A DNA stretch of 50,573 nucleotides, from positions 1 through 50,573 of IMG/VR virus record IMGVR_UViG_3300014656_006075; one strand, given 5' to 3'. The stretch is from a virus. Its lineage: Duplodnaviria; Caudoviricetes. This document shows positions 34,070-49,817 of this stretch, piece after piece; the stretch's first letter is position 1, and each line of letters starts with the position of its first letter. The position numbers were made by a program, and so were the translations under genes. Under the pieces are notes generated by a model that was not told where the DNA came from, did not search any database, and was given only the letters and a program-made list of their open reading frames with translations.

Positions 34070-34094
34070 GTACTTTCTCTTTGACAGAGTGAAA

Positions 34095-34397: not shown

Positions 34398-34408
34398 CTG
34401 TACTTCTC

Positions 34409-35623: not shown

Positions 35624-36446
35624 TTCCACTATCAACCAGTTCAGCATTTGGGATACTATCATTGTTCTTCTCCAATAAAGGTTTTTCAGTACTCTTTTCG
35701 ATCTTGATTCTTCTTTCGTCCTCGACACCTTCTGAAAGCTGTTTCCAGGAGAATTCTTCAGATTCAACCGACTTCACTATCCTGTCATTCAAGCCTAGAT
35801 AGTGATCAAACTTATCAAGGGCTACTGTCATATCTTTTGCGTTTCCACCCTTCTCAGCTATCTCAACTGCCTTGATTCTCTTTTCAATGAGCCAGGTCTT
35901 ATCTGCCCCTTTATCACTAAGGACTACACTTAATTCTTTATCAACCATAGCTTTAACTTCCTCTGTTTTGAACAATCTTCTTACCGTTGCAGCTGCTATG
36001 TATTGATCGGGTCGATAAGCCTGACCTAATCTATTCCAGTCAATAGCACCCGCAAGCATCATTTGAACATAAACCTTTACAGTATTTCGGGTCCTAAGCC
36101 TGTTAGCTTCAGCAACTTGCCAGCTATGAGCTTTCTGGTAGTTCCATGAGTTGTATAACAGATTCTCAAGGAAATCCAGCTTAACCTTTGTACTCACAAA
36201 CCTTCTTCCGAAAGCAGTCTGGACTTGTTTATTCGGACGGCGTCTGTGCCTTGGTGTATAGAGCTTAACCATTAACAGTTCACCAACCCATCCGTCATCC
36301 GATAAAGCCCAAATCTGCCCTACATCTTCAGCATCACATTCTTTCCAGTACTTGTACGGTATCTTGAGATCATCAGCTTCATGCTGCTCATAGATCTTAA
36401 ATTCCTTAGTTCCTTCTTTTGCCAGCTTCCGTATTATCGTTTCCAT
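35610..36446 (-). CDS. Hypothetical protein, candidate terminase small subunit
   Basis: C-terminal helical HTH-like/oligomerisation pattern; upstream of terL; function inferred from position only. Confidence 0.45.
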   Translation of the reverse strand: METIIRKLAKEGTKEFKIYEQHEADDLKIPYKYWKECDAEDVGQIWALSDDGWVGELLMVKLYTPRHRRRPNKQVQTAFGRRFVSTKVKLDFLENLLYNSWNYQKAHSWQVAEANRLRTRNTVKVYVQMMLAGAIDWNRLGQAYRPDQYIAAATVRRLFKTEEVKAMVDKELSVVLSDKGADKTWLIEKRIKAVEIAEKGGNAKDMTVALDKFDHYLGLNDRIVKSVESEEFSWKQLSEGVEDERRIKIEKSTEKPLLEKNNDSIPNAELVDSGSGED

Positions 36447-36711
36447 TTTTCATCAACTCCTGAATATCCTTATCTGTCAGAATGTAGATTTCGGAAGAAA
36501 ATGTCGTGCTATGGTCATCGTTCTTGGTCTTTTTTAGAGTCCAAGCCAATCGAGCAATTTTTTCAGAGAACAGTTGTACTACTTGTTTCTTGGCAAACTC
36601 AGTGGCCATCTTCTCACTTCTGAAAAGGTTAGTTCTTAAATTAAGGTCCACCTTCACTTTTGCTTTTGCCAGTAACTCTTCCATTTGCTTTGTCATCGTG
36701 TCTATCCGCAT
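36406..36711 (-). CDS. Hypothetical protein
   Basis: 101-aa ORF in operon. Confidence 0.6.
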   Translation of the reverse strand: MRIDTMTKQMEELLAKAKVKVDLNLRTNLFRSEKMATEFAKKQVVQLFSEKIARLAWTLKKTKNDDHSTTFSSEIYILTDKDIQELMKNGNDNTEAGKRRN

Positions 36712-36752
36712 CCATCATATTATCATTTATAAAATTCATCGTCATCATCGTT

Positions 36753-37307
36753 CTAGTTTAATTGTTCGCGTCTTACAACTTTTAGTTCTTTTGCAACTTT
36801 TGGGTTAGCCTTAAACTGAACACTTGCATCAATAGCTTTTGATAGTAATCCAAAGGCTTCATCATGAGCAGGGGATTTGTCAACTTCCATTAGAGCTGTG
36901 TATTGTTCAAGGTACGGCTTGGTTAAAAGGTCAGTGTCAATTGCTGCAGAAATAAGACATCCCAAAATATCATTAGAAAAGTCTTCCTCATAAGCTGATT
37001 CTTTCTGCTCCAGGATAACCTCACCCAGTTTCCTTTTAATGCGCGTAAGATCCTTCTCCATCTTGGAAGCAGGGGAGAGTTTCAATGCTCCGATGTCAGC
37101 CTGCATAGCTTTAAGGGTTTCTGTCAGTGAGGCTATCCTGGTATCAACCTGTTTGCTTCTTAAATCCAAAGTTTCAGCAAAGGCGACAGTCATTTTGAGG
37201 CTATTAGCGAAGGAATTCGTGGATACTTTATCAAGCTTGGCTTGAAATTCAGTTCGTAGGTCTTCTTTGACTTTCTCAAGTCTGGTTTTAGTTACTAAGT
37301 TAAACAT
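36753..37307 (-). CDS. Coiled-coil hypothetical protein, first gene of the leftward arm
   Basis: 184 aa; RBS is AATGGAGTGCGAACCTT-ATG. Confidence 0.75.
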   Translation of the reverse strand: MFNLVTKTRLEKVKEDLRTEFQAKLDKVSTNSFANSLKMTVAFAETLDLRSKQVDTRIASLTETLKAMQADIGALKLSPASKMEKDLTRIKRKLGEVILEQKESAYEEDFSNDILGCLISAAIDTDLLTKPYLEQYTALMEVDKSPAHDEAFGLLSKAIDASVQFKANPKVAKELKVVRREQLN

Positions 37308-37510
37308 AAGGTTCGCACTCCATTAGTTTAGGTTAAAACTTTTATATATGGCTTTGAAAAGGAGGCGGGGAACAGGACAGAATGAAGATCCTATCCCCCT
37401 GTTTTGCTTGAGGTAACCAACCAACTAATCAATGTCTATGTCAATCGTACAGTTAATAAAAAACTTTAAGCAATCCATATAAAACTATATAAATAAATCA
37501 CTTGAAAATA

Positions 37511-37539
37511 AATGTAGACAACAGATACAGGTAATGCAA
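37511..37539 (-). promoter_or_regulatory. sigma70-type promoter for the leftward arm
   Basis: TTGCAT-N17-TACATT. Confidence 0.6.
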
Positions 37540-37969
37540 GTGAAAAGGTACGTCTATCCTAAAAAAATTACTTAGCTAACCAGATCCATGTAAACAAGTT
37601 GGGTTACAGGGTCGGAATTCCCGTTGAGATCCTGACAATATAGCCAGTAGCAGACAAGAAGTGACAAAGTGAGGGGAAATAGTAGGGTTACAGGGTGGGT
37701 GTGGCAAGGGTAGTCATCTCAGGGATCACAGTAGGGTGCTCCTACCTGCATAACATCTGAAAAATTATAATATAGTGGGGGTGGGTGATATACAGGTTAT
37801 CCCGACCCTTGCCAGAAAGGGTGTACGGGGTCGCAATCCGTTGAAATTTCCGTTGTAGCCCACAGGTTAGCTGCTTGGATCATGGCAAGGCTCAGTCCCT
37901 AGCAACTGGCGTTGCCTTGCTTCATATCAACGCTCAATTCATTTAATCATTTATACTAAGGAGTATATC

Positions 37970-38311
37970 ATGGCTTTGATTACTAAGTGTACCAACCCAG
38001 CTAAACAGTATCTATCTAAGAAGAACAAGTGGAAGGTTGTACAGGACTCTGAAGAGAACACTGTCTACAATACTAGACGTGTCAGAATGTCCTTCGATGA
38101 TCATGTAGCCATTCATGAGACTGTAATGGGTTCCAAATTGTTAGCTTTAGCAGCTGAACTGGACAATCCAAAGGTCGTTATCAATAAGGATGCAGAGTAT
38201 TCATTAGTCCATAACAAGGATGGTGATAAGTTTCATAGAACATCTGAAGCTGGCTCTAAGTTTACTGTCCTTACATATACACAGCGCACTACTGCACAAG
38301 TTGAGTGGTAA
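37970..38311 (+). CDS. Hypothetical early protein
   Basis: 113 aa, AAGGAG RBS. Confidence 0.75.
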   Translation: MALITKCTNPAKQYLSKKNKWKVVQDSEENTVYNTRRVRMSFDDHVAIHETVMGSKLLALAAELDNPKVVINKDAEYSLVHNKDGDKFHRTSEAGSKFTVLTYTQRTTAQVEW

Positions 38312-38447
38312 CTATAAAGGGGTGTTCCAATACGGAGCATCCCAACTCATATGTTCACTACACCCTCAAGCAGTATCCATGAATTAATCCCAGCAATACC
38401 AGCGTAATGCCAGTAACCCAAATAACGATCATCCAACGGAGAATACA

Positions 38448-38696
38448 ATGTACCCAAACTATTTAATTAGACTTAGTGAGTGGATAACTATCCGCGCACA
38501 AAGAGGACTCAGTGCAGGTATTTTAGCTCAGGCTAGAGACCTATTAACATTAGCAGATGAACCCAGTTTACCAAATGTCATGCTCCAATCAATGAAACAG
38601 GATGTAATGACTCAGCTGATTAACTGGCGGTCAGAGTTCTCAGAAACAAATGAAATTGACTTCCTCATAGGTGAGGTAAGCAGGAGTTTACAGTAA
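38448..38696 (+). CDS. Hypothetical early protein
   Basis: 82 aa, GGAG RBS, hairpin downstream. Confidence 0.7.
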   Translation: MYPNYLIRLSEWITIRAQRGLSAGILAQARDLLTLADEPSLPNVMLQSMKQDVMTQLINWRSEFSETNEIDFLIGEVSRSLQ

Positions 38697-38818
38697 TACT
38701 CCTTGGATAACCCCCTGTAACCCAGCAATGGAGCAGGGGAGTTTATTTAATTAACCAGGACATGCATGACATTTTAACTATGCCATAATAATAATGGACT
38801 CTTGATTGAGTCCCGCTG

Positions 38819-39025
38819 TTAATTCAGGCATATGTCCAATTTTATTAATAACTCACGTACTTCAGCAGTATTCGGAAGCCATAAGGCTCCTTTATTCCAG
38901 TGTCCATGCTTGGATACAAGGTCTAATGTCTGTCTGAAGTCTCTTTTGCCTTTATTATAGTCAGCGGGGTAAGGTCTGAGGATAGTATATTCATTACTAT
39001 TCAAGATTGCTCTTGTAGTGATCAT
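38819..39025 (-). CDS. Counter-oriented 68-aa protein with its own promoter
   Basis: RBS AATGGAGTGCGACC-ATG; promoter at 39065-39093; hairpin GGACTC/GAGTCC after the stop. Confidence 0.75.
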   Translation of the reverse strand: MITTRAILNSNEYTILRPYPADYNKGKRDFRQTLDLVSKHGHWNKGALWLPNTAEVRELLIKLDICLN

Positions 39026-39064
39026 GGTCGCACTCCATTATTGTATCCAGGGAAATAGAACTTA

Positions 39065-39093
39065 AAGTTATTACAGAAAAGCAGTTAAGTCAA
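39065..39093 (-). promoter_or_regulatory. sigma70-type promoter
   Basis: TTGACT-N17-TAACTT. Confidence 0.6.
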
Positions 39094-39154
39094 GTCATTT
39101 AAAGTAGTTTGTCACATAGGCAGACATTTTGACAATAAGTCATAGGAGCATTAC

Positions 39155-39412
39155 ATGGAAAGGTTTGCAGTTGTGTTATTACTGGTAACAAATTATGCAG
39201 ATTATCTGACAGCAGTAACATTTTCAAGAGGGTTAGGTAATTGCTGGTTTCTCAGCTTTGAACGTGATCCGATAAGCGTTGTATTTGATCTCTTTGCTGA
39301 TGGACATATCACACCTTCAGTTAATGGTAATCGGATGTCAGATCTTTCAATTGATGAAGTAGAAGAATATTTAACCAGGACACTTGGTATCCCTGTATCC
39401 AAGACAGGATAA
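39155..39412 (+). CDS. Hypothetical protein
   Basis: 85 aa, AGGAG RBS. Confidence 0.6.
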   Translation: MERFAVVLLLVTNYADYLTAVTFSRGLGNCWFLSFERDPISVVFDLFADGHITPSVNGNRMSDLSIDEVEEYLTRTLGIPVSKTG

Positions 39413-39449
39413 TTTGGAACTAAGACCTTTTTGAATAAGTTGATTAAAA

Positions 39450-39752
39450 ATGATCAAAGGCAGAATAATTCTATTTAGCAGCAACTCTGACGTTGACTCC
39501 TTCCTCACTAATAACTGTTTCGATTGCGGAAGAGTATTCCACGATCCAATACATCTAGCGAACGAAAAGTCAGAATTCAAATGCGCTTTACTCGAACAAT
39601 TATCAACAAAGAACCTTAAAGAGTCTGTTATCTCACGAGAGAACCTTCACTGTTCTGCCCCAATAGCATTAGCCAAAGAGTATGGGTTCAAGCCCTTCAA
39701 GCATTGGAAATGTGTTAAAAGAACTCCTAGGGACAATCTATCAGCCAAGTAA
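39450..39752 (+). CDS. Hypothetical Cys-rich protein
   Basis: NNCFDC...C...C pattern. Confidence 0.6.
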   Translation: MIKGRIILFSSNSDVDSFLTNNCFDCGRVFHDPIHLANEKSEFKCALLEQLSTKNLKESVISRENLHCSAPIALAKEYGFKPFKHWKCVKRTPRDNLSAK

Positions 39753-39827
39753 TCGGATACAGAGGTCTTATGTATTTTGAATTAATTTCATGCGTAGAAA
39801 TGTAAACTTAACATAAATTAATCAACA

Positions 39828-39856
39828 TTGCAACTTAATTAATTAAGACATATTAT
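39828..39856 (+). promoter_or_regulatory. sigma70-type promoter
   Basis: TTGCAA-N17-TATTAT. Confidence 0.6.
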
Positions 39857-39995
39857 ACTTGCTATGTTTTATTTTGATTTGATCACAATTTTAGATGTGC
39901 GAACCTGAATATAGGAACCAACTGATTAACGCACAGGGGGAACCAAGATAAAACTAACGGGAGTGCGAACCCAATAACCATAAGGAGAACTGTAT

Positions 39996-40844
39996 ATGTT
40001 CCAGGAAAATCAATACCCAGACGTAGAAGTAGTAGAAATATTAGCAATTGAAACAGAACCATTATTAGCTTCAACTCAATTCAAACAAGAGGTCATCACC
40101 GATCTCAGCCAGTTTTATAACCCAGTATGTGAACAGCCACTTGAATACGTGTCACCAATTTATAATGACATTGTAATCAGCAACGAGTTCAAAGGTATTT
40201 ATGACGGATTAACTGGTCAGCTCATTCACCCTCACTTAAATAGCTACAAGGTAGTGACTAATCAAGAAGTCATTGAGCCTGTACTGAACGTATTAACAAA
40301 CCTCGGTTTTAATTATCAGTTCGGAAAGAAACAGTCATACTGTCACTTAGGATGGATGAAGCTGCAAGTTATATTCCCTGATATCCTATTCCTTGACAAT
40401 GATTCAAAATCCGCTTTAACTCTTGATATTTATAACAGTTACAACAAATCCTACAAAGCTATTATGCAATTTGGTGGACTCAGAGAAGTCTGTACCAATG
40501 GCATGACCCTATGGAAGATATTAGGCAGATATGTACGTAAGCATACTTCTGGATTCAATATTGATGAATTCAAAAGAGTTCTGAATAAAGGCATGCAAAG
40601 TGTGCCAGTGGTCCAGGAGCGTATTCAATTACTTGAAAGTATCGAAGCAAAAAGTGAGCTGTTATTAGCTATTGAGAATGAATTTCCTAAAGCTGTGAAG
40701 GAATATGTTAATGTTGAACATAAGTCAGGGATGTCCGAGTGGGACGTGTACAACATTTTAACTCATTACATCAGCCATGAAATCAAGAAGCAACATTTGA
40801 TCGCTGATTATTCTAACAGAGCAAGTCAGCTCTTTAATCTCTAA
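39996..40844 (+). CDS. DUF932/DUF945-family protein
   Basis: YKVVTNQEV, YNSYN...GGLREVCTNGM, WDVYNILT. Confidence 0.8.
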   Translation: MFQENQYPDVEVVEILAIETEPLLASTQFKQEVITDLSQFYNPVCEQPLEYVSPIYNDIVISNEFKGIYDGLTGQLIHPHLNSYKVVTNQEVIEPVLNVLTNLGFNYQFGKKQSYCHLGWMKLQVIFPDILFLDNDSKSALTLDIYNSYNKSYKAIMQFGGLREVCTNGMTLWKILGRYVRKHTSGFNIDEFKRVLNKGMQSVPVVQERIQLLESIEAKSELLLAIENEFPKAVKEYVNVEHKSGMSEWDVYNILTHYISHEIKKQHLIADYSNRASQLFNL

Positions 40845-40859
40845 TCCAGGAGTACGAAC

Positions 40860-40991
40860 GTGTTAATATTTACTCTTTCAGTCATTGCAACAGGTCTATT
40901 AACTTGGTTTTACTTCATGCATAGGAGCATGAGGTTTACACAGAAGATGGTTAAGACCATTTATCTAAACAACTTACAGAAAAATGACTGA
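40860..40991 (+). CDS. 43-aa single-TM peptide
   Basis: Hand-translated from GTG: LIFTLSVIATGLLTWFYFMHRSMRFTQK...; RBS GGAGTACGAAC. Confidence 0.55.
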   Translation: MLIFTLSVIATGLLTWFYFMHRSMRFTQKMVKTIYLNNLQKND

Positions 40992-41007
40992 AGTCAATTT
41001 ATTTCTA

Positions 41008-41036
41008 TTGCATTAATAATTTACTTTAAGTAAGTT
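41008..41036 (+). promoter_or_regulatory. sigma70-type promoter
   Basis: TTGCAT-N17-TAAGTT. Confidence 0.55.
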
Positions 41037-41109
41037 ATCTATCCCTATACAGGGAAACAAGTTATACAACGGAGTGCGAATCCGATTTTCTTTTTACAAG
41101 GAGGACTGT

Positions 41110-41895
41110 ATGTCTGAGGCAATTCTATACGTGGGTAAATCTGGACGTGGCAAGACCACATCTGTCAGAACCCTTAACCCTGCTGAAACTTATATCATTA
41201 GCGTGATCCCTAAACCTTTACCTTTCCCTGGCTGGAAGCAATCATATTTCGAGAACTATTTTGACGAAAATGGTAGTGAAATCCAAGGCAATAGGATGAT
41301 AGTGTTTGGGAATGATTTCGATCTTCGCGCATTAAGTGATCCTAAGAACACAGCTAACAGAGACAAATTCCTGAACGTGAGTAACGAAATAGTTAAGAAG
41401 CTCAGGAATATTTCCGCTTATCTACCCCACATTAAAACCATCGTGATTGATGACAGTCAGTACCTTATGGCATATGAAGCAATGGCTAAGGCAACTGAAA
41501 CTGGCTATGGTAAATTCAATCAAATGGCACTTAACTTCTTCAGTATTATCCCCATATCTCAGAATCTCAGGGATGACATTAAAGTATTTTTCCTTCACCA
41601 TGTTGATGACAGTGATGCAACTAACGTTAGAGCTAAGACCCTTGGTAAGATGATCGATTCTACGATCACGCTTGAAGGTGTTTTCTCGACCGTATTGTAT
41701 GCCGACATGAAGACAAAAGGTGGCAAGAACGAGTACTTAATTCATACTCAAGGTACAGAATTCAACACTTGTAAATCTCCGATGGGAATGTTCATTAACT
41801 CTGTCATACCCAATGATTTGCAATATGTTTGCGACTGTGTTGATGCGCATAACAATGGTCAAGCTGTACCTGTTCTGCCTAAGTTAGCTGCATAA
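41110..41895 (+). CDS. AAA_24/Sak4-like ATPase (phage recombination)
   Basis: GKSGRGKT, IVIDDSQY, KTLGKMID, CKSPMGMF; start reset to MSEAIL after AAGGAGG. Confidence 0.85.
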   Translation: MSEAILYVGKSGRGKTTSVRTLNPAETYIISVIPKPLPFPGWKQSYFENYFDENGSEIQGNRMIVFGNDFDLRALSDPKNTANRDKFLNVSNEIVKKLRNISAYLPHIKTIVIDDSQYLMAYEAMAKATETGYGKFNQMALNFFSIIPISQNLRDDIKVFFLHHVDDSDATNVRAKTLGKMIDSTITLEGVFSTVLYADMKTKGGKNEYLIHTQGTEFNTCKSPMGMFINSVIPNDLQYVCDCVDAHNNGQAVPVLPKLAA

Positions 41896-41947
41896 TCAAG
41901 CTGGATTTTCCAGCACAAATAACAATTCAAATTTAACATTAATCCTA

Positions 41948-42631
41948 ATGGGAGAAATACGTATGCCAAAAATGAACTCAAATCACTCGACTGGTGGTCA
42001 AAGTAACTCAATTGTAGAAGGTGTCTATTTATCACCTGCTCGTATCAAAGCGATTGAGCTTAACCAGAACAATTTGGACGGTGAAGGTAAACCATTCAAT
42101 CTTGCATTAATAGTAACCCTGGAAACAGGTTCTGGTGATAAAGTATTCGATAACAAATTATTCATAGCTGGTAACTTCGCTGAATCATTTAATGGGTGGG
42201 GTCCAAGACTTCGCCATTTTGATACACTGTTACAGTCTTCAGGTGTTTACAACTACTTTGATGCTGATACAATTGCTCAGTATGGCAATCAGCTAGAACT
42301 CGGTACATTACCCGCTTCCTTGATTAACACTGCTACTGGTAAAGAGATCCAGGTCGTACAGTATATCAACAGAATGTATGGAGGTAAAGCCCGTTCAACT
42401 GTTTGGGAGCAGACTTTCCCGATTGATGCTGAAAGAGAAGATATTAAAGCTGAATGGGATAAATGGCAGGGATATCTTATTAAAAACGCAAAGAAGAATC
42501 CTTTCCAGCCTGAGTTGATGGGTATGACTGAATCAGATCAAACCTCATTCAATCATGGTGCTAACGTGGGTCAATCTACTGTTAATGTAGCTGCTCATGC
42601 TGGTGTCGAAGAACGTCCGATGATCATTTAA
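41948..42631 (+). CDS. Putative single-stranded DNA-binding protein
   Basis: Follows the Sak4-like ATPase; OB-like beta pattern (EGVY...IKAIE) and flexible tail; start may be 41963. Confidence 0.5.
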   Translation: MGEIRMPKMNSNHSTGGQSNSIVEGVYLSPARIKAIELNQNNLDGEGKPFNLALIVTLETGSGDKVFDNKLFIAGNFAESFNGWGPRLRHFDTLLQSSGVYNYFDADTIAQYGNQLELGTLPASLINTATGKEIQVVQYINRMYGGKARSTVWEQTFPIDAEREDIKAEWDKWQGYLIKNAKKNPFQPELMGMTESDQTSFNHGANVGQSTVNVAAHAGVEERPMII

Positions 42632-42644
42632 TAATACAGGGCAT

Positions 42645-42676
42645 AAAAAAAGGGTCTAACCAAAAAGGATAGACCC
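42645..42676 (-). terminator. Intrinsic terminator of the sRNA
   Basis: 7-bp stem plus U7; no minus-strand CDS upstream to explain it. Confidence 0.8.
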
Positions 42677-42734
42677 AAATGCCTCGAAAGGCTTTCAGTT
42701 AGCAATGGAGTGCGAACCCTTATGAGAACTGAAT
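42645..42734 (-). ncRNA. Predicted ~90-nt antisense small RNA with three hairpins
   Basis: Promoter at 42739-42767; stem UUCAGUU/AACUGAA enclosing CUCAUAAGGGUUCGCACUCCAUUGCU; GCCU-UUCG-AGGC; terminator GGGUCUA...UAGACCC-U7. Confidence 0.8.
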
Positions 42735-42738
42735 GCGA

Positions 42739-42767
42739 AATATAGTAGAGTAACCATACACATGCAA
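42739..42767 (-). promoter_or_regulatory. sigma70-type promoter of the sRNA
   Basis: TTGCAT-N17-TATATT pointing against the early operon. Confidence 0.75.
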
Positions 42768-42828
42768 GTGGAACTAGGTACAAGTACCGATAAAAGATTT
42801 AACGTTATCCATTTAGGAGTATACAATA

Positions 42829-43086
42829 ATGGCACAGAAAACAGCAAGATTTATATTATTAGAATGGCTAAGGTCAAAGAAAGGCAGATTGATTAGGACT
42901 CACAATATCGAAGACGAAGTAAAAAGATACGGAGTCTTAGCTTACAATAAAACACACAATGGCAGTTCTTACTCAAGAGCCTTCCGAGTCATTAAAAATG
43001 ACGTTGCACTCATGCGATCGCATGGTTTTGAAATTCAGCAGTCTAATGACCCCGACTCAATTGAAGGGACATGGCTCGTAACATAG
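42829..43086 (+). CDS. Small putative winged-helix DNA-binding protein
   Basis: 85 aa, basic, SSYSRAFR helix then beta hairpin; precedes primase. Confidence 0.55.
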   Translation: MAQKTARFILLEWLRSKKGRLIRTHNIEDEVKRYGVLAYNKTHNGSSYSRAFRVIKNDVALMRSHGFEIQQSNDPDSIEGTWLVT

Positions 43087-43095
43087 GAGTACTTA

Positions 43096-44946
43096 ATGAA
43101 CAAATTCACTGAATTCACTTTCGGTAAACGACACGAAGGTAAGGCAGTAGACGTGAACGGATTAGGTCAATACCTGAAAACTGCTCAGGCTACTGGCGCA
43201 GAGTTCTTCAGATCCATTTTTTATTTCGATGAACAGATTCTTCAGCACTTAAAGACACGCAAATCTCCATCAGGCTACTTAGGCAATTACCACCTTGATA
43301 ATATAACCTTGGACATAGATAAGGGGAAAGAAACCGATACAACAACGCTGCATCGAGCTAAAATGTTTTATGAACAGTTAAGGGATGATTGGAATATTAA
43401 CGAAGACGAAATCCAATCATGGTTCTCAGGTACAGGGTATCATTTTGTCATACCTGACATATTTGGATTTGAACCCGCTAACGATCTTCCAGATACAGTT
43501 CGTAAGACTCTAGCGCGCGAATTTGAAGGAATAGACACATCGTTTTACAACAACTCAGGATTGATTCGGGTTGGCTACACAATTAATCACAAGACTAAAT
43601 TATACAAAACTCCATTACATGCTGAAGAACTTTTGAGTGCTAAACCTGAAGACATATTCGCGTTAAGCAAACAGCCTAGAACTGACTTTCATTTCACAAA
43701 GTATTTATCCAAGAATGTTACTCACCCAGGTAGAATATTACTATCCAATGGCGATAAGAAACAAATGAAAATGAGTCAACACAACACTACTAATCGAGTG
43801 ACTTGTATGCAATCTTGTTATGCCCTTGGTGAAGAAGAAGGGACCCGTCATCTTAGAATTATGCGTTTAGCTAGTTGGCAGCGTAGAAATGGAACTCCGA
43901 TTGAAGGAACTGTTGCAATGATACAGGCTTATGCTCCATCATTAGATCCCTATGCAGTCGAGAGGGATGTACGTTACACTTACGATAAAGAGTATGAGTT
44001 CGGATGTAATGATAGCATAATGAAAGAGTTTTGTTCCAGCAAATGTTTGTTCTTCAAGGGCAAGAACTTCCTACCTGGTATTGTTACAGCTCAAGAAATG
44101 GAGAAAGAGTACGTTCAATATACTCGTGATCTTCAAGGTGACAACGTAATCGATCTGAAAGATGTCTGGGACTTAGAAGAAAATTTCAGAATTCTTCCAG
44201 GGAACTTAGTTAATGTCATAGGACCATCGGGCAGAAATAAAACTGCACTTGCTCAGAATCTTGCTGTTAAGTTAGCTAAAAAGACTCTGTACATTTCCAC
44301 CGAGTTCGGTAATCAGCAGCTATACAGACGATTCGTTCAAATTGCTAGAGGTATGGACAAAGAATCAGTCCAAGAGCATTATCTGGTTAATACAAACCAT
44401 TACTCTAATGATGTTCGCAATATTGGATACGTAAGGGACACTCCTGATCTCATAGAACTTGAACAGATTGTCAAAGATTCTGATAAACACGTAATTATCA
44501 TTGATACAGTACATGATATTGATATCAGCGATCAACCAGACGGACTCAACAAAGAGAAACGTTTAGCTATGGAGCTGAAGCAGATGGCTGAAAGATATAA
44601 AGTCATTATTATCATGGTTCAACATACCAATAAACAATCCTCAGAACATAGGACGAAAGAAGGTAGCATAGAAGCATCTGAATTATCAATGTACTCAGGA
44701 CTTGGATCGAGTGCATTTACTCAGAAATCTGATATTGTTATCGGCATTACTGGTGAACGAAATATGTCAGCCAGGACAGTAGAATGTCTCAAGGCTAGGG
44801 ATGATCCTAGTTTCAAACTCTTCTTCAACGTTGATATGAAAACATTCATCTTTCACCAGGTATCATTAAAGGATGAACCGATTGATCGAATAGCAGCGCA
44901 TCAACCAGATAGACCTATCCATCAATTAACCTTTGGAGGAAACTAA
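43096..44946 (+). CDS. AEP primase(-polymerase) fused to an SF4/DnaB-like helicase
   Basis: TLDID, FSGTGYH, Cys cluster CND...FCSSKC, GPSGRNKT, ISTE, IIIDT, MVQH, KARD. Confidence 0.85.
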   Translation: MNKFTEFTFGKRHEGKAVDVNGLGQYLKTAQATGAEFFRSIFYFDEQILQHLKTRKSPSGYLGNYHLDNITLDIDKGKETDTTTLHRAKMFYEQLRDDWNINEDEIQSWFSGTGYHFVIPDIFGFEPANDLPDTVRKTLAREFEGIDTSFYNNSGLIRVGYTINHKTKLYKTPLHAEELLSAKPEDIFALSKQPRTDFHFTKYLSKNVTHPGRILLSNGDKKQMKMSQHNTTNRVTCMQSCYALGEEEGTRHLRIMRLASWQRRNGTPIEGTVAMIQAYAPSLDPYAVERDVRYTYDKEYEFGCNDSIMKEFCSSKCLFFKGKNFLPGIVTAQEMEKEYVQYTRDLQGDNVIDLKDVWDLEENFRILPGNLVNVIGPSGRNKTALAQNLAVKLAKKTLYISTEFGNQQLYRRFVQIARGMDKESVQEHYLVNTNHYSNDVRNIGYVRDTPDLIELEQIVKDSDKHVIIIDTVHDIDISDQPDGLNKEKRLAMELKQMAERYKVIIIMVQHTNKQSSEHRTKEGSIEASELSMYSGLGSSAFTQKSDIVIGITGERNMSARTVECLKARDDPSFKLFFNVDMKTFIFHQVSLKDEPIDRIAAHQPDRPIHQLTFGGN

Positions 44947-45144
44947 ATGTCAATAATAACATACGTGCTGAAAACTGACATTATAGCAGTTGCCTTTCAA
45001 GTGAATGATGCAAATGTAATCGTTCAGGCTGGACCATATTTACATTGGACAGTTGGACAGAAAGCAAGCGTCATTGACAATTGGCTAAGAAAGAAACAAT
45101 ACAATTATTCAGTCACTGAAGTTAAGGAGCAAGCCAATGGCTAA
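44947..45144 (+). CDS. Hypothetical protein
   Basis: 65 aa, GGAGG RBS. Confidence 0.65.
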   Translation: MSIITYVLKTDIIAVAFQVNDANVIVQAGPYLHWTVGQKASVIDNWLRKKQYNYSVTEVKEQANG

Positions 45145-45319
45145 GTATAAGCGTATGGAAGCTCCTGAGAACTGTGGTAACTCATGTAAGATGTGCGTTT
45201 TGAATGGTCAGAATCCTCCATGCAACAAAAGTATATACCAGCATTTATTTGAGTGCTGGGATGATACCAAAGCATATTATTTTATTAAGGTTTCAGAAGA
45301 AAGGAAGGTAATTGTATGA
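45137..45319 (+). CDS. Small Cys-rich protein
   Basis: 60 aa, CGNSCKMC. Confidence 0.65.
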   Translation: MAKYKRMEAPENCGNSCKMCVLNGQNPPCNKSIYQHLFECWDDTKAYYFIKVSEERKVIV

Positions 45320-45346
45320 AAGTAATACTTGATAAGGGCAGCTCTA

Positions 45347-45895
45347 ATGCCTAAAGAAATTTATAAACTAATTACCTACGATAGTGAGGAAGAAATACAG
45401 TTTGTGAAATGGTTAGAGCTGGCTCAGGAAGCTGGACTTGTTGAAAGATGCGTCTATCAGCCTGGGTCATATCTGCTGTCTGATAAAGTTCAATACACTG
45501 AAGAAGTGGAGCTGAAGACTAAGACCAAAACTGTGCATAAGACCTTATTCCATCCTCACGAATATACGGCTGATTTCCTGATCTATTTCAATAAGATATT
45601 CTTTCAATTCTTTCCTGGATTATTACGCCCAGCTCATAAAGACACCAAGACTGCTGTTGTGGTTGATGTGAAGGGCTTGTATAACCAGAACGATGCATGG
45701 AGAAGATTCTCTATTGACCAGAAATGGGTTTATCAGATATATGGTGTGTATGTCAACAAAGTTATTCCTGAGCAATTCTTTTCTTTCACATTTGTTCCAG
45801 ATGAAATTGCCTGGATAAAGGGTAGGAAGAAGCCTACCAGGATTAAACGATTTAGTAAATGCAAACTGTTCTCGGAAGTGGAGAACACATTTTAA
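45347..45895 (+). CDS. PD-(D/E)XK endonuclease (DUF1064-like)
   Basis: YDSEEE, YQP, YTADF, VVDVKG; start likely MPKEIY. Confidence 0.75.
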   Translation: MPKEIYKLITYDSEEEIQFVKWLELAQEAGLVERCVYQPGSYLLSDKVQYTEEVELKTKTKTVHKTLFHPHEYTADFLIYFNKIFFQFFPGLLRPAHKDTKTAVVVDVKGLYNQNDAWRRFSIDQKWVYQIYGVYVNKVIPEQFFSFTFVPDEIAWIKGRKKPTRIKRFSKCKLFSEVENTF

Positions 45896-45920
45896 CAGTT
45901 AACCAAGGAGTGCGAGCATT

Positions 45921-46613
45921 ATGGCAAGTTTAATTAAACTGGAAAATGAATTACTGATGATCCAACGTGAATTTATGGAATCATTCGATACAAATACTGG
46001 TGAACAAATAGCAGACACTGAAGCAACAGAAGACAAGATGTCGATTCTTGGGAAACAGGTAGCTGCAAAGAAAGCTGGATATGTAAAGTTCCTGAAAAGT
46101 GGTAAGCTAAAGGATCTGCAAAAACGCGGTGAAGACATGATTGCAAATATCAATCGTGAAATTACTCAGATCAGCTTTCGAGAAACAATGATGAAGAAGA
46201 CATTACATCATTCGATAACTGAAGAAGGTTCATACATGACGATCTTTGATGAAGAAACAGGCAAGCCTGACTTGTATGTAACACCATCATTTGATATTAA
46301 GAGAACTGTGGATATGGAGAAGGTTCCTGGCAACTGTCCAAATCTTCAATACTCTTTACCTAAGCTAACCATTGGAGAATACGAGTCCGTCATGTCTGCT
46401 ATGAATCATTCGTATATGACGATTAACGGATCAATGGAAAGAAGCACGATAATTTCTGCTATGCGCAAATTTACTGAAGATGCAGTTTCCTCAATTGGAG
46501 TAAAAGCACTTCAGGAGATTGATCCAAAACATCCCGCAATTAAAGAACACCTTACACCAACGGTTAAGATCACTAAGACCTTGCCTCAAGAACTGAAGGA
46601 GAAAGCAGCCTAA
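45921..46613 (+). CDS. Gp157/Gam-like coiled-coil protein
   Basis: N-terminus SLIKLENEL...DTNTGE...K..GYVKF resembles siphovirus Gp157; RBS GGAGTGCGAGCATT-ATG. Confidence 0.5.
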   Translation: MASLIKLENELLMIQREFMESFDTNTGEQIADTEATEDKMSILGKQVAAKKAGYVKFLKSGKLKDLQKRGEDMIANINREITQISFRETMMKKTLHHSITEEGSYMTIFDEETGKPDLYVTPSFDIKRTVDMEKVPGNCPNLQYSLPKLTIGEYESVMSAMNHSYMTINGSMERSTIISAMRKFTEDAVSSIGVKALQEIDPKHPAIKEHLTPTVKITKTLPQELKEKAA

Positions 46614-46837
46614 TGTTAAAACCAATCACTTTCGGAGTAAAGAAGAATGATAACAAAGAGAATTCGACCAAGAATAGACATTTCCAAATGGTTTTATTTG
46701 AGCTATTTCTTTTTTCTGCCTCTGCTCATACTACTCTTGCAGGAACTTCTGTCACAATAGGAATCGGTCTTACAGGTAAGGCTGACTGTGGCTTGTACTT
46801 CAATCTGCTAGATAGAAAGGAGCAATTAGATGCTTAA
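46613..46837 (+). CDS. Hypothetical protein
   Basis: 74 aa, translationally coupled. Confidence 0.55.
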   Translation: MLKPITFGVKKNDNKENSTKNRHFQMVLFELFLFSASAHTTLAGTSVTIGIGLTGKADCGLYFNLLDRKEQLDA

Positions 46838-47489
46838 ACATATAATCACGACCAAATGCGATAGGACTTGCTCTTATTGCATTATGAAGAATGTATCCGT
46901 TGACGAAAAGTACAACTTAGAAGAGTTACATGATTTGTATGCTACACTTGCTGTTGATTTTGAACAGATAATGATCACTGGTGGAGAACCTTTAATGCAT
47001 CCAATCTTCTTAGATATCGTTGAAGCAGCTAGACTATTCTTCAAAGAGGTACACTTGACCAGTAGCAGAACAGAAGTGGCTCAAGATCCTGGCATCGCTT
47101 CATTGTTTGATAGCGTCACTATTACATTTCATTCATTTGAACACATTCCTAAAGTCAATCCCTGTGTCCCTATCTATGCCTCAATCATGGAAGGGGATTA
47201 TGAGGAAATTCTACCGATGTTATTCAAGACAATGGGATATGCTGGATTAACGATCAACGAGAATCATTGGGAGCCTAATAGGATTCGATTCTGGGATCTA
47301 CCTAAGCCAAACAATTTCTCAATCAGACTGAATGAGTCAGGAAAGTGCTGCTCAGACATGGAAATGATTTTACCCAACTTGGAAGTAATTGATAGTTTTG
47401 AAAAATTTATGGAGTGCGAAAATGAACCAACCTGTAATACTAAAACACTGGAACTTCGAAGGAATAGTCCCGTTCATCAGGAATTTTGA
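46830..47489 (+). CDS. Radical SAM protein
   Basis: CDRTCSYC, ITGGEPL. Confidence 0.85.
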   Translation: MLKHIITTKCDRTCSYCIMKNVSVDEKYNLEELHDLYATLAVDFEQIMITGGEPLMHPIFLDIVEAARLFFKEVHLTSSRTEVAQDPGIASLFDSVTITFHSFEHIPKVNPCVPIYASIMEGDYEEILPMLFKTMGYAGLTINENHWEPNRIRFWDLPKPNNFSIRLNESGKCCSDMEMILPNLEVIDSFEKFMECENEPTCNTKTLELRRNSPVHQEF

Positions 47490-47745
47490 TTTAGAACAGG
47501 ACTTCTTAAATGCCTATGGTTTAGAAATAGACCATTACAAATGTGAACCTGAAGAACTGTTAGTCATTGAGGAAATGCTAATGGCTATGCAGTCAGATCT
47601 TCCTACCGATACTCATTACGAGTTCAAAGATCCTCAGCCCGATTCCTTCGATCTCTATAAGGTAAGAAGGGAGCGGTCAAATCCCCTGTATAATCTGTTG
47701 TGGATTCCAATGAAAAAGCTCATGCTTTGGGGAGCTACTGCATGA
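47422..47745 (+). CDS. Hypothetical protein
   Basis: Start reset to MNQPVIL after ATGGAGTGCGAA. Confidence 0.65.
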   Translation: MNQPVILKHWNFEGIVPFIRNFDLEQDFLNAYGLEIDHYKCEPEELLVIEEMLMAMQSDLPTDTHYEFKDPQPDSFDLYKVRRERSNPLYNLLWIPMKKLMLWGATA

Positions 47746-47963
47746 CACATATCGCTTACGAAGTATTTATTGACCAGGGATCGGATAAAGGAACCATGAC
47801 AATAGCTCATGCAAATTCCGAAGCTGAACTCAAACTGGAAATCTCCAATCTACTCAAAGGTGATTATGAACTGAAGGATCTCCATGCTGATAAATGGAAG
47901 TATGTTCATGCTGTTGGAGTTCCTATCGGAGAGCTGGATCTAAAAAAACTAATGAAAGACTAG
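47742..47963 (+). CDS. Hypothetical protein
   Basis: MTHIAYEV..., ATGA overlap with upstream gene. Confidence 0.6.
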   Translation: MTHIAYEVFIDQGSDKGTMTIAHANSEAELKLEISNLLKGDYELKDLHADKWKYVHAVGVPIGELDLKKLMKD

Positions 47964-48271
47964 TAGAGTCGAGGCTGAAATTGGATAAGTTATACATAGC
48001 TGCATTTTCGTTTATTTCAGGGGAATACAACATATCTTTTAAGCAGACTATCCTTGCAAAAAGTCACCTTGAGGCAGACGACAAAGTTGTTGATTACCTA
48101 AGAAACCTCTACGGTCCTGATGGATTAGTAGAGGAAGAAGAACACAGATTCCTTTACGAAGGTGGGGAAATTGCCGTTGAGTTCATATACCTGAAAGAAA
48201 CGGATTCCCAAAACCTTGCAAATTATTTGTTAATTCCTAATTGCTTGCCAACAAAAGAGAAGGCTGCTTAA
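47894..48271 (+). CDS. Hypothetical protein (true start likely near 47981)
   Basis: ORF track; N-terminus overlaps the previous gene. Confidence 0.55.
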   Translation: MEVCSCCWSSYRRAGSKKTNERLVESRLKLDKLYIAAFSFISGEYNISFKQTILAKSHLEADDKVVDYLRNLYGPDGLVEEEEHRFLYEGGEIAVEFIYLKETDSQNLANYLLIPNCLPTKEKAA

Positions 48272-48296
48272 TTGCAGCTTTCCAAGGAGATATAAA

Positions 48297-49817
48297 ATGT
48301 TTAATGCTGAATTCTTTCCTACACCCAAATGGGTGATACGAAAAATGATTGAGCCTTACTTGAAAGGGCTGCATGAAAGAGTGATACTAGATCCTGAAGC
48401 TGGCAAAGGTGACATCCTGGATTATATTGCAGATGCTTCAGGCAGCTATTGTCCACCTAAAATGTATTGTGGTGAAATCAATAGAGATCTTCAGTTTATA
48501 TTATCGGAAAAGAAATACAGGCTGATCACTGAAGACTTCCTGAAATATTCAGGAGACCTGTTCTTTGACCTCATTGTAATGAATCCACCATTTAGCAATG
48601 GAGTGGATCATTTACTAAAGGCATGGGAGATCCTTGATGAAGGTGACATCTGCTGCTTATTAAATGCTGAAACTATCCTGAATCCTCATACTGAGAAAAG
48701 GAAACTGTTAGCTACTATAATTAAAGATAATGCTGGCGAAGTTGAACACCTTGGACAATGCTTTAAGGATGCTGAAAGAACTACTCAAGTAGATGTTGCT
48801 ATGGTACGTCTGAAGAAAGTTAGCGGTTCTAAACGTGTGGACTTCGAATTCAAGAGTACATCTTCTGAACCCAGACTTAACCTTGATGAAAATATCATTA
48901 ATGATGCTGTTGCTACAAGGGATGTAATCGGTAACATGGTATTGCGTTTTGAGCAAGTGAAGGAATTGTTTGTTGAGCATTTGAAAGTCACTGAAGGGAT
49001 TAGGTTTTATTCTAACGGTTTAACAAGTACATACGATAAATTCATGGATGAATTCGGTACAAGTGGGGCTAATAAGCTGAAGTATAATGAATTCTGTGAC
49101 CATTTAAGAACAAGTGTATGGAAGCAAGTCATTACTCAGATGGGTATGGAAAGATACATGACTCATAATGTCCGAAGTAATTTCAACCAATTCATAGTGA
49201 CTCAAGGAGCTATGGACTTCACTAAAGAAAACGTCATGAACTTGATTCGAACATTGCTGCTAAACAAAGAAACCATCCTGGAACAAGCTGTGGTTGAAGT
49301 TTTCAATATGCTGACTAAATATCACGATGAAAATAGATGTCATGTTGAAGGCTGGAAAACTAACGATAAGTGGAAGGTGAATAAGAAGTTGATTCTTCCA
49401 AACTGGGTAAAGTATGGTGCTTACATGTCAAGTCACGATATTAGTCAATACGGTGATAATTTCGGAACCAATTACAGCTATGACAGTGAGTATTCTGACA
49501 TTGACAAGGTAATGTGTTATATCAGTGGAACTAAGTATGAGAAATGTCTAACGATCCGTAACACCTTAGAGCATAAATTTCATGAACTCGGGAAAGTATA
49601 TTCTGGCACGTTTAGTAATACTTGCGAGTCTGAATTCTTCGATATTAAATTCTTCAAGAAGGGAACTGTTCACCTAACCTTCAAAGATGAATTCCTATGG
49701 CAAGAATTCAACATGAGAGCTTGTGATGGTAAACAATGGCTGCCTGAATCAGAAAAGAAAACCTGGCAGGAGTCAAAAGTTCAGGACAAACAAACATTAT
49801 TTAGTGAGGTTGCCTAA
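48297..49817 (+). CDS. N6-adenine DNA methyltransferase with DUF4942-like C-terminus
   Basis: FFPTP, ILDPEAGKG, MNPPF, FDIKFFKKGTVHLTF. Confidence 0.85.
   Translation: MFNAEFFPTPKWVIRKMIEPYLKGLHERVILDPEAGKGDILDYIADASGSYCPPKMYCGEINRDLQFILSEKKYRLITEDFLKYSGDLFFDLIVMNPPFSNGVDHLLKAWEILDEGDICCLLNAETILNPHTEKRKLLATIIKDNAGEVEHLGQCFKDAERTTQVDVAMVRLKKVSGSKRVDFEFKSTSSEPRLNLDENIINDAVATRDVIGNMVLRFEQVKELFVEHLKVTEGIRFYSNGLTSTYDKFMDEFGTSGANKLKYNEFCDHLRTSVWKQVITQMGMERYMTHNVRSNFNQFIVTQGAMDFTKENVMNLIRTLLLNKETILEQAVVEVFNMLTKYHDENRCHVEGWKTNDKWKVNKKLILPNWVKYGAYMSSHDISQYGDNFGTNYSYDSEYSDIDKVMCYISGTKYEKCLTIRNTLEHKFHELGKVYSGTFSNTCESEFFDIKFFKKGTVHLTFKDEFLWQEFNMRACDGKQWLPESEKKTWQESKVQDKQTLFSEVA

Follow-up and report, generated by a model that had tools for sequence, protein, structure and literature searches.

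The tag in its prophage setting

Why should one nine-nucleotide sequence recur before a subset of the genes of a single prophage, and what reads it there? The window analysed here is the whole stretch of 50,573 nt, and its element is an integrated prophage that lies beside a tRNA-Ser gene in a groundwater bacterium and carries podovirus-like structural genes. The host is placed among Ignavibacteria-like MAGs through named relatives alone. The nearest phage relatives found (primase-helicase 43-46%, portal 46-54% identity) lack the tag, and a 2925-aa ORF gave no match in Pfam, PHROGs, NCBIfam or PDB sequences, nor did its central 1300 aa in the ESM Atlas.

The initial annotation had reported seven exact copies of GGAGTGCGA, and we recovered all of them at the same places and on the same strands. 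Its expectation of about 0.4 copies per 50 kb was too high, as 100 shuffles of the window give 0.08 and none of them (0/100) reaches seven. All seven lie inside 10 kb (37313-47419), in the non-structural part of the prophage, while the structural genes (724-33981) contain no exact copy. Both strands are used, and 7/7 copies are co-oriented with the flanking genes. Since allowing one mismatch adds just four sites (11 in total in the window, against 4.97 expected), the signal resides in the exact copies. The tag extends to GGAGTGCGA(ACC), with the two changes described earlier, C>T at 41081 and A>G at 45916, both present; the near-copies proposed at 40849 and 39897 also proved real. A scan of the host genome outside the window (~3.9 Mb) found the tag to be rare, with six copies scattered over six contigs and unclustered, compared with seven in the prophage. 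The copies and near-copies are as follows.

37310-37321 (9-mer 37313-37321), minus strand: copy 1, GGAGTGCGAACC, ending 5 nt before the ATG at 37307 of a 184-aa gene (36753-37307), the first of a leftward operon
39028-39036, minus strand: copy 2, 2 nt before the ATG of a 68-aa gene (38819-39025)
39960-39972 (9-mer 39960-39968), plus strand: copy 3, GGAGTGCGAACCC, in the leader of the DUF932 gene, 27 nt before the ATG at 39996, with no start codon directly after it
41071-41083 (9-mer 41071-41079), plus strand: copy 4, GGAGTGCGAATCC, in the leader of a Sak4-like ATPase gene, 30 nt before the ATG at 41110
42707-42719 (9-mer 42707-42715), plus strand: copy 5, the hub, in a 198-nt intergenic gap, its minus strand being the anti-tag; 6 nt before an ATG
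45907-45915, plus strand: copy 6, 5 nt before the ATG of a 230-aa gene (45921-46613)
47411-47419, plus strand: copy 7, inside the end of a radical-SAM gene, 2 nt before the ATG at 47422 of a 107-aa gene that overlaps the radical-SAM gene
40849-40857, plus strand: one-mismatch variant GGAGTACGA, 2 nt before the GTG at 40860 of a 43-aa hydrophobic ORF
39897-39905, plus strand: partial copy GTGCGAACC, tail only, in the DUF932 leader farther upstream than copy 3
35209-35219, minus strand: GGGGATGCGAA, related to the tag with two mismatches, immediately ahead of the ATG of a 70-aa zinc-ribbon gene

The copies had all been described as lying at translation starts or in leaders. This holds in that five stand at start codons and two in leaders, but the start at the hub heads just a 7-codon ORF, at 42724. 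Copy 1 shares 15 identical nt with the hub copy, and the near-tag region of the zinc-ribbon gene has 9 nt (ATGCGAAAT) in common with 42733-42741, next to the hub. The label Gp157-like, given previously to the gene at 45921, fails: this gene has no Sipho_Gp157 match even at E<=1, and it is the gene at 36753-37307 that has the sole match to that family, a weak and sub-threshold one (E 0.027).

Position relative to start codons

Five copies are placed 2, 2, 5, 5 and 6 nt before an ATG and the 40849 variant 2 nt before a GTG, so that their GGAG serves as a Shine-Dalgarno core; the genes behind the two leader copies have an AAGGAG of their own. In a survey of start regions, GGAG at -11 or -14/-15 falls inside the range of host Shine-Dalgarno sequences, which peak at -10/-9 and for which -14/-15 represents the tail of the distribution. 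The 16S 3' end is canonical (GGATCACCTCCTTT) in 2/2 same-family genomes, which stand in for the truncated 16S of the window genome itself, and therefore only the GGAG of the tag pairs with it; neither of these two 16S sequences contains an 8-mer complementary to the tag. The TGCGA tail is not enriched at host starts, where it reaches at most 3/1952 start regions at any offset. An extended Shine-Dalgarno sequence common at host ribosome-binding sites, which the initial annotation had named as the finding that would speak against its own reading, is thus rejected. The eight target-site regions show no unusual structure (z -1.42 to +1.08).

We consider that the tag most likely acts in mRNA, at translation initiation. 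It is a private, strand-specific mark in which a Shine-Dalgarno core, GGAG, is fused to a tail, TGCGA(ACC), that the ribosome cannot read, and it singles out a subset of the non-structural genes.

An action in DNA instead, either as an asymmetric repressor operator resembling the L5 stoperators or as a piece of a promoter specific to the phage or of an initially transcribed sequence, appears to us very improbable. The sites are asymmetric, oriented with transcription and mostly intergenic, and they head likely transcription units; the prophage adjoins a tRNA-Ser gene and no CI-type repressor was recognised; relatives identified by their portal carry a different 15-mer repeat that resembles a phage-specific promoter, 12-40 nt before early-gene starts and just past terminators; and a comparison with stoperators is made in the part of PMC3203893 used here. 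However, six sites hold GGAG at Shine-Dalgarno distance, where a promoter would leave no leader, and their spacing to the start codon is inconstant (2, 2, 2, 5, 5 and 6 nt). Upstream of the copies no conserved block is as long as a promoter, and an ACAGGG box stands at varying distances from the tag (22, 27 and 71 nt on the plus strand, 81 nt before the 37313 copy on the minus strand). The copy at 47411 sits within a coding region. The tag does not resemble a sigma-70 promoter, since none of the hexamer-pair sites listed by the scan (30, against 36.5 expected) coincides with any copy. No sigma or RNA polymerase family was found in the window; the alternative raised initially, a phage-polymerase promoter, is unsupported by the 49 scanned ORFs (0/49 match RNA polymerase families) and is at odds with the start-codon spacing.

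A candidate antisense RNA at the hub

The minus strand of the hub has the anatomy of a small RNA gene, with the following elements.

about 42644-42736, minus strand: candidate antisense RNA of ~90 nt (93-nt fold, MFE -29.2, z -4.09)
42733-42694, minus strand: SL1, a hairpin whose 26-nt loop contains the anti-tag
42692-42681, minus strand: SL2, a GCCU-UUCG-AGGC hairpin
42645-42676, minus strand: SL3, an intrinsic terminator, GGGTCTA..TAGACCC followed by seven T
42739-42767, minus strand: promoter-like TTGCAT-17-TATATT, directly upstream of the candidate RNA
37511-37542, minus strand: CACTTGCAT-17-TACATT, upstream of the leftward operon, sharing a 9-mer and the spacing with the promoter-like site at the hub

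No shuffle was as stable as the candidate RNA (0/200), and its MFE structure accounts for 30% of the ensemble. Of the eight terminator-like sites in the window, only three combine a compact, strong hairpin with a run of T. Among these three, the site at 42651 on the minus strand alone runs antisense to the neighbouring genes, and its place is just past the anti-tag. The promoter-like pattern has four matches, all on the minus strand, against 0.93 expected. A point against an antisense RNA is that the hub hairpins would form in plus-strand mRNA as well (z -3.2). In the one metatranscriptome containing part of the phage, assembled contigs covered only 39420-39606 and 43194-43637, with none on the hub locus; in all other runs the sequence is identical. 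An Rfam scan of 33000-50573 at E<=1 returned two sub-threshold matches, CRISPR-DR36 and suhB (over the terminator), and no c4.

The candidate reader would be this minus-strand RNA of ~90 nt (~42734-42645), the apical loop of its first hairpin presenting the exact complement of the tag. Nine to 15 contiguous base pairs would cover the Shine-Dalgarno sequences of the genes starting at 37307, 39025, 45921 and 47422, while at the DUF932 and Sak4-like genes the leader tag would be covered together with a second block over the gene's own Shine-Dalgarno sequence. A single RNA would in this way lower the output of these genes at once and so serve in immunity or timing. The tag, where it sits, its scarcity in the host and the gene-like layout of the minus-strand locus are observed; production of the RNA, its pairing and repression by that pairing are what we infer from the sequence.

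Complementarity between the hub and the tagged genes

Exact matches tile hub positions 15-35, which correspond to the loop. Predicted duplexes of the hairpin with the start regions of four genes reach -37.0, -36.1, -33.9 and -32.5 kcal/mol, against a background of 800 host start regions with a mean of -13.1, a standard deviation of 3.8 and a minimum of -30.4 kcal/mol. Further matches lie outside the tag itself.

39984-39992, plus strand: second block GGAGAACTG, over the true Shine-Dalgarno sequence of the DUF932 gene
41100-41108, plus strand: second block GGAGGACTG, over the true Shine-Dalgarno sequence of the Sak4-like gene
48592-48605, plus strand: TTAGCAATGGAGTG, 14 nt identical to the left part of the hub loop, inside a methyltransferase gene, in the codons after NPPF

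The DUF932 block contains 8 nt (GAGAACTG) identical to 42724-42731, beside the hub copy, and the Sak4-like block differs from that at 42724 by one G:U-compatible change. An 8-nt match of this kind is found in 29/1882 host start regions. A point against the antisense reading is that overall just 2/53 phage start regions have a match of at least 8 nt to the hub flank, with ~0.8 expected. The match in the methyltransferase gene may be a target or may be due to chance.

These similarities can be read in another way. In the DUF932 and Sak4 leaders as at the hub, the elements follow one order, an ACAGGG box, the tag and GAGRACTG, so the likeness between leaders and hub can reflect common descent rather than selection for pairing. 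The copies could accordingly be duplicated leader or ribosome-site cassettes without any trans-acting reader, the hub being a decayed cassette that has lost its gene, which we regard as very unlikely. The shared order runs on to an ATG in all three plus-strand intergenic regions, the start codon at the hub stands at Shine-Dalgarno distance although it opens merely those seven codons, and other start-site families recur in the phage (CATAGGAG before three genes, and CATAGG without AG before two more). The hub is also not more central to the similarity than other copies are. On the other hand, duplicates of 9-15 nt evolving neutrally would not keep 9/9 core positions in seven copies amid diverged flanks; the conserved tail contributes nothing to rRNA pairing, and cassettes leave the opposite-strand terminator and promoter-like element unexplained.

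The position of the hub among the copies also bears on the antisense RNA. In an all-against-all comparison, the mean antisense values are similar for the copies at 42707 (-26.8), 39960 (-27.6) and 37313 (-26.7), and the hub is therefore no better an antisense source than two other copies, which weighs against the antisense reading. The initial claim of a small RNA locus is thus borne out in its anatomy (promoter-like element, anti-tag loop, UUCG hairpin and orphan terminator) and weakened by the hub being no more a centre of complementarity than two other copies.

A further point against RNA pairing is that the nine core bases are invariant in 7/7 copies while the flanks vary, as is more typical of a fixed-width protein site. 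A protein, whether repressor, activator or sequence-specific endoribonuclease, might bind GGAGUGCGA in mRNA in the manner of T4 RegA or RegB, the 42707 copy then being a decoy, a site of autoregulation or the remnant of a start. We judge this unlikely, less so than the cassettes or an action in DNA. The strand-specific placement at start codons would suit such a protein. In addition, GUGCGAAC can form a GNRA-type mini-hairpin, GU[GCGA]AC, which the changes at 41081 and 45916 preserve as G:U pairs; both had been taken earlier as wobbles favouring RNA pairing, an argument that no longer discriminates because the mini-hairpin explains them equally well. The part of PMC3014915 used here provides the RegB/RegA precedent at early start regions, and many small phage ORFs lack an assigned function, including the 70-aa zinc-ribbon gene with its near-tag start. 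Against a protein reader, no RegA, RegB or other RNA-binding family match was found (in 49 window ORFs compared with PHROGs and in those compared with Pfam and NCBIfam), and both the orphan minus-strand terminator with its promoter-like element and the second complementary blocks at DUF932 and Sak4 are left unexplained.

Taken as a whole, a start-associated mark read by a phage antisense RNA is the reading we prefer, at a probability that falls somewhat short of even. Strand bias, start-codon position and rarity in the host fit the RNA regulon proposed initially; the wobbles do not discriminate. An RNA-only regulon, in which a single Hfq-independent RNA would recognise a private extension of the Shine-Dalgarno sequence and silence at least six lytic genes scattered over both strands as a prophage immunity or timing switch, is possible, and we lean against it.

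Comparison with known systems

The CI RNA of phage P4 offers one comparison for small-RNA immunity in phages. In the part of PMC12197685 used here, the c4 RNA of P1/P7 pairs from its loops with a ribosome-binding site. Our candidate would likewise be a small phage RNA with loops complementary to the surroundings of ribosome-binding sites elsewhere in the phage, blocking translation as a form of immunity, and in silico such a loop is present as the anti-tag in the 26-nt loop of SL1. Unlike c4, the locus matches neither RF01695 nor any other Rfam family. Whereas c4 controls one operon and is processed from its target transcript, at least six genes scattered over both strands have the target in common here, and the candidate would be transcribed antisense to an intergenic copy of the tag.

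Like the tag, the stoperators of L5 and cluster A phages are short asymmetric sites in many copies, which follow the direction of transcription and lie in short gaps between the genes of a temperate phage. They work in DNA, by way of the repressor, and keep no set position relative to start codons, unlike the tag with its GGAG at Shine-Dalgarno distance.

In T4, according to the part of PMC3014915 used here, RegB cleaves GGAG in the start regions of early genes, aided by the 3' context, and RegA represses ~30 mRNAs. The candidate system would be similar in exerting phage-wide post-transcriptional control at GGAG-containing or start-proximal sites of early mRNAs. The T4 sites in that account are loose (GGAG plus context, or A+U-rich), whereas the tag is an invariant 9-mer.

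The closest parallel that we draw is with the SAS of cluster K mycobacteriophages, described by Pope et al. in 2011 (PMC3203893), whose reader was still unknown in 2025 in the parts of PMC3203893 and PMC12699233 used here. As described there, SAS is also a short asymmetric repeat with a Shine-Dalgarno core. It keeps one orientation, stands a few nucleotides before the starts of some genes only, occurs solely in the non-structural region and is almost missing from the host, and the conserved bases on its flanks are unable to pair with 16S rRNA. The spacing of SAS is 3-7 nt before starts; here five of seven copies and the variant lie at 2-6 nt and the others at 27 and 30 nt, in leaders rather than at starts. 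The sequences are unrelated (GGAGTGCGA here, GGGATAGGAGCCC in SAS as given in that source), as are phage and host, and the copy number is seven here compared with the 11-19 described for SAS. One copy here also falls in an apparent antisense RNA gene, a placement unreported for SAS in those parts of the literature. The tag is hence an analogue of the cluster K SAS and not a member.

This last difference turns the long-standing question of the SAS reader into a concrete hypothesis. If it is true, phages would address chosen mRNAs of their own by a private code that extends the Shine-Dalgarno sequence, a general and undescribed route of addressing, and the antisense RNA would represent the long-sought type of reader of SAS-like elements. 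It would also bear on the silencing of lytic genes in temperate phages without a classical repressor and on the design of orthogonal translational control. Should the antisense reading fail, the locus would still provide a clean new SAS-like example outside the actinobacteriophages.

A start-associated tag in the non-structural region

We found that the tag GGAGTGCGA, a 9-mer in which a Shine-Dalgarno (SD) core GGAG is followed by a TGCGA tail, occurs seven times in the window against 0.08 expected, a number reached by none of 100 shuffles. The initial annotation had claimed seven exact copies within 10 kb, and this was confirmed, all of them lying in a 10.1-kb non-structural stretch. All seven run in the sense of the neighbouring genes (chance ~0.008) and fall inside one fifth of the window (chance <0.001), both values by our own arithmetic. 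Allowing one mismatch adds little (11 sites in all vs 4.97 expected).

Tag copies in the window
37313 (-): exact match
39028 (-): exact match
39960 (+): exact match
41071 (+): exact match
42707 (+): exact match
45907 (+): exact match
47411 (+): exact match
40849 (+): one-mismatch variant GGAGTACGA, 2 nt ahead of the GTG of a 43-aa ORF

Five copies end 2, 2, 5, 5 and 6 nt ahead of an ATG, namely those of the genes starting at 39025, 47422, 37307 and 45921 and of a 7-codon ORF at 42724. The GGAG of these start-proximal copies stands at -11 or -14/-15. In a set of 1952 long host ORFs, GGAG is commonest at -10/-9 (89 and 87 cases) and is counted 59 times at -11, 17 times at -14 and 10 times at -15, with a background of 3.5; the GGAG of the tag can therefore act as an SD, close to the optimum at -11 but less well placed at -14/-15. 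The DUF932 and Sak4-like genes carry the tag 27 and 30 nt ahead of their ATG, without a start codon directly after it, and each has an AAGGAG(A/G)ACTGTAT start region of its own. The tag is often conserved further as ACC, with AATGGAGTGCGAACC common to the copies at 37313 and 42707, and GGAGTGCGAACCC to those at 39960 and 42707.

Considering these positions, we think it likely that the tag acts in the mRNA, at initiation. An extended SD was rejected, since only GGAG pairs with the 16S rRNA and the TGCGA tail is rare before host starts. The pairing follows from the 16S 3' end, which is canonical (GGATCACCTCCTTT) in two genomes of the same family; in the prophage's own genome the 16S breaks off at model position 873. 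Neither of the two family 16S sequences contains an 8-mer complementary to the tag. The initial annotation had allowed that the motif might be equally common at host ribosome-binding sites, and this is not so, as TGCGA never exceeds 3 occurrences at any one offset. A host-wide motif was likewise rejected: the whole genome holds 13 copies, 7 in the window and only 6 outside it, scattered one per contig over six other contigs.

A role of the tag at the DNA level appears improbable to us. No listed sigma-70 hexamer pair coincides with any copy, and the sequence 5' of the copies is only loosely A/T-rich. The promoter for a phage RNA polymerase that had been proposed as an alternative found no support either, as no RNA polymerase or sigma-factor family was found in the window, and a promoter would not hold GGAG at SD distance, with spacers of 2-6 nt, in six places. 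We did not observe an RNA structure common to the target copies (z -1.42 to +1.08 in 8 regions).

A candidate antisense RNA at the hub

The copy at 42707-42719 (+), which we call the hub, lies in a 198-nt gap between genes for 227 and 85 aa. Its minus strand would encode an RNA (42736-42644) with three predicted hairpins.

Elements of the candidate RNA
42767-42739 (-): promoter-like TTGCAT-17-TATATT, ahead of the RNA
SL1 (-): predicted 7-bp stem UUCAGUU/AACUGAA with a 26-nt loop CUCAUAAGGGUUCGCACUCCAUUGCU
SL2 (-): predicted GCCU-UUCG-AGGC hairpin
Terminator (-): predicted GGGUCUA..UAGACCC, then seven U

The SL1 loop is exactly complementary to the tag and its common flanks. The 93-nt RNA folds with a minimum free energy of -29.2 kcal/mol (z -4.09, with 0/200 shuffles as stable), this structure making up 30% of the ensemble. 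A scan of the 50-kb window for hairpins followed by a T-run gave 8 sites, with compact strong ones only at 13670(-), 34039(-) and 42651(-); the first two stand between co-directional late genes, and 42651(-) alone is antisense to its neighbours. A minus-strand transcript ending at 42651 would carry the anti-tag hairpin at its 3' end. Regarding the promoter-like element, TTGCAT-N16-18-TANANT has four matches where 0.93 are expected, every one of them on the minus strand, CACTTGCAT-17-TACATT is repeated at 37542-37511 (-) ahead of the leftward operon, and no hexamer is more enriched upstream of host genes than TATATT.

By short-word BLAST, exact matches to the hub within the window tile its positions 15-35, that is, the loop.

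Exact matches to the hub
37310: 15 nt
48592: 14 nt
39960: 13 nt
39028: 12 nt
47409: 12 nt
41071: 10 nt
38724: 10 nt
45907: 9 nt
39897: 9 nt

At 48592 the match falls in the codons that follow the NPPF motif of the methyltransferase gene, and it may reflect either a target or chance. The start regions of 53 phage ORFs were scored for their duplex energy with SL1, and 800 host start regions served as comparison (mean -13.1, sd 3.8, minimum -30.4).

SL1 duplex energies at tagged genes (kcal/mol)
DUF932: -37.0
Sak4-like: -36.1
36753 gene (start 37307): -33.9
45921 gene: -32.5
38819 gene (start 39025): -27.0
47422 gene: -21.8

The untagged late genes 27452 (-25.1) and 26297 (-22.7) outrank the 47422 gene, and the energy at the one-mismatch variant (40860) is only -17.6. 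The DUF932 and Sak4-like leaders score best owing to a second block over their real SD (GAGAACTG and GAGGACTG, respectively), which corresponds to 42724-42731 in the 5' arm of SL1; among host start regions, 29/1882 hold a comparable 8-nt match.

Assuming that the tag acts in the mRNA, it is possible, and we propose it tentatively, that this antisense RNA reads it. Several observations weigh against it. When every copy was taken in turn as the antisense source, no signal singled out the hub as the centre of complementarity, its mean of -26.8 being no better than that of 39960 (-27.6) or 37313 (-26.7). An ACAGGG box, the tag, GAGRACTG and an ATG follow in the same order at the hub and in the leaders of DUF932 and Sak4, so that their similarity may be paralogy. 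A match of at least 8 nt to the hub flank occurs in only 2/53 phage start regions vs ~0.8 expected, and the contigs of the one RNA run are confined to 39420-39606 and 43194-43637, with the hub outside both. Finally, the invariant 9-nt core is what one would expect of a protein site; that a protein reads the tag in the mRNA nevertheless seems unlikely to us, and the remaining weight falls to a tag without a dedicated reader. The initial annotation had taken the wobbles at 41081 and 45916 as favouring RNA pairing. They do not discriminate, as a mini-hairpin GU[GCGA]AC is equally preserved. If the antisense RNA does pair with its targets, a long loop-to-linear contact like that of c4 would be needed, since Hfq was not found in the host genome, which is 86.6% complete and leaves its absence unproven.

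Other repeats near the tags

ACAGGG has 8 copies on the plus strand, 6 of them within the 6-kb early region (37606, 37690, 39933, 41049, 42636 and 43432), and each intergenic tag copy on the plus strand has one of them 22-71 nt upstream; ACAGGGGGA also lies 81 nt upstream of the copy at 37313(-). ACAGGG may be an operator or promoter box. Between the divergent operons extends a 660-nt non-coding, relatively G-rich region (37308-37969) with no significant RNA fold on either strand. It contains two direct copies of GGTTACAGGG (37602 and 37686), and a third, inverted at 38713, lies in the 5' arm of a terminator-like hairpin (38709-38736) and reaches into its loop, where AGCAATGGAG, a 10-nt stretch of the hub, is also found. 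Allowing one mismatch, GGTTACAGGG has 7 matches vs 1.25 expected. In the divergent region between the 68-aa (-) and 85-aa (+) genes, the inverted repeat TTGTCA-N-TGACAA (39109-39136) looks operator-like by its sequence and falls at a listed sigma-70-like site.

Prophage setting

The window is an integrated prophage, the reverse strand of one end of a 142.6-kb contig in a groundwater assembly (genome 3.96 Mb, 16 contigs).

Modules and border
724-37307 (-): terminase, portal, major head protein, SU10-type adaptor, holin, endolysin, 2925-aa ORF
From 37970 rightwards (+): early/replication genes (DUF932, Sak4-like ATPase, primase-helicase, resolvase-like, radical SAM, DUF4942 methyltransferase)
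About 50842-50931, just beyond the window (L112, 19616-19705): tRNA-Ser(GCT), abutting the prophage right end

The tRNA-Ser gene, followed by host TonB-receptor, PEGA-domain and citrate-lyase genes, is likely the attachment site. The left end of the prophage extends past the end of the contig, and the window showed no integrase. A weak NUMOD1 match was obtained for the final phage ORF (50148-50679). The 2925-aa ORF of the structural module (4854-13631, -) has no match in PHROGs, Pfam, NCBIfam or PDB sequences, nor its central 1300 aa in the ESM Atlas; its size is reminiscent of virion-packaged giant proteins. We also observed a clostripain-family (Peptidase_C11) gene near the left end (3149-4288, -) and a gene for a short radical-SAM protein in the early region (46830-47489, +).

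Relatives

Four other runs contain the same phage at ~99-100% identity; the three single-base differences seen are isolated ones and fall outside all tag copies and the hub. In run X3, word depth is 86 over a 20.4-kb contig that stops at 43247, and the DNA rightward of it occurs only in short pieces of depth 1-4; this step at 43245-43247 may reflect an assembly break or a mosaic relative sharing the left part only.

DNA similarity was limited to short chance pieces in 400 other genomes of the order and was absent from GenBank phages. The primase-helicase alone gave no relatives in viral, genome or metagenome contigs, 3 weak matches in GenBank phages and 8 distant ones among 165 other genomes of the family searched. 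No such tag was seen in 80 relatives of the Sak4 protein (at most 43% identical), in 80 of the portal (up to 54%) or in those of the primase-helicase (up to 46%). For a 15-mer of the tag, viral contigs gave 19 single matches, none with a second copy and apparently all chance; the 11-mer ACAGGGTGGGT, which the window shares with L155 and L161 but in the opposite orientation relative to the portal, is probably chance as well.

Phages with a 50%-identical portal (L161 3750-6223; L188 4343-6690; L186) carry 7 copies of a 15-mer of their own, TTCCTCTATGTATAA, in early-gene sense, 12-40 nt ahead of starts and immediately behind bidirectional terminators. It has the look of a single-element, phage-specific promoter and is reminiscent of the phiEco32-type TAATGTATA element; the promoter-like 10-mer of the relatives is not enriched in the window (73 vs 73.2 expected). 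The distant primase-helicase relatives L208, L213 and L258 hold 6-9 copies of GGCTATTGA / GGCTACTGA or of the palindrome GCTAATAGC, on both strands.

Comparison with known systems

The candidate RNA matches no Rfam family. A literature search, largely by titles, found no published phage system with a private ribosome-site tag mirrored in an RNA loop; one joining phage early genes, anti-SD and small RNA found nothing, and the mentions of the 9-mer among those listed were unrelated by title. The minus-strand RNA would work in the manner of the c4 RNA of P1/P7 (excerpts of PMC12197685). T4 RegA/RegB (excerpts of PMC3014915) and the L5 stoperators, mentioned in PMC3203893, offer models for the rival readings.

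Judging by the excerpts at hand, the closest described thing to the tag is the start-associated sequences (SAS) of cluster K mycobacteriophages, 13-bp asymmetric repeats with an SD core, found at 11-19 non-structural genes, 3-7 bp ahead of their starts, and absent from the host (PMC3203893). Their reader, "RNA or protein", was unknown in that paper and still unresolved in 2025 (excerpts of PMC12699233). As far as these excerpts describe the SAS, the tag agrees with them in every positional criterion, whereas sequence and phage are unrelated; we therefore regard the tag as an analogue of the SAS.
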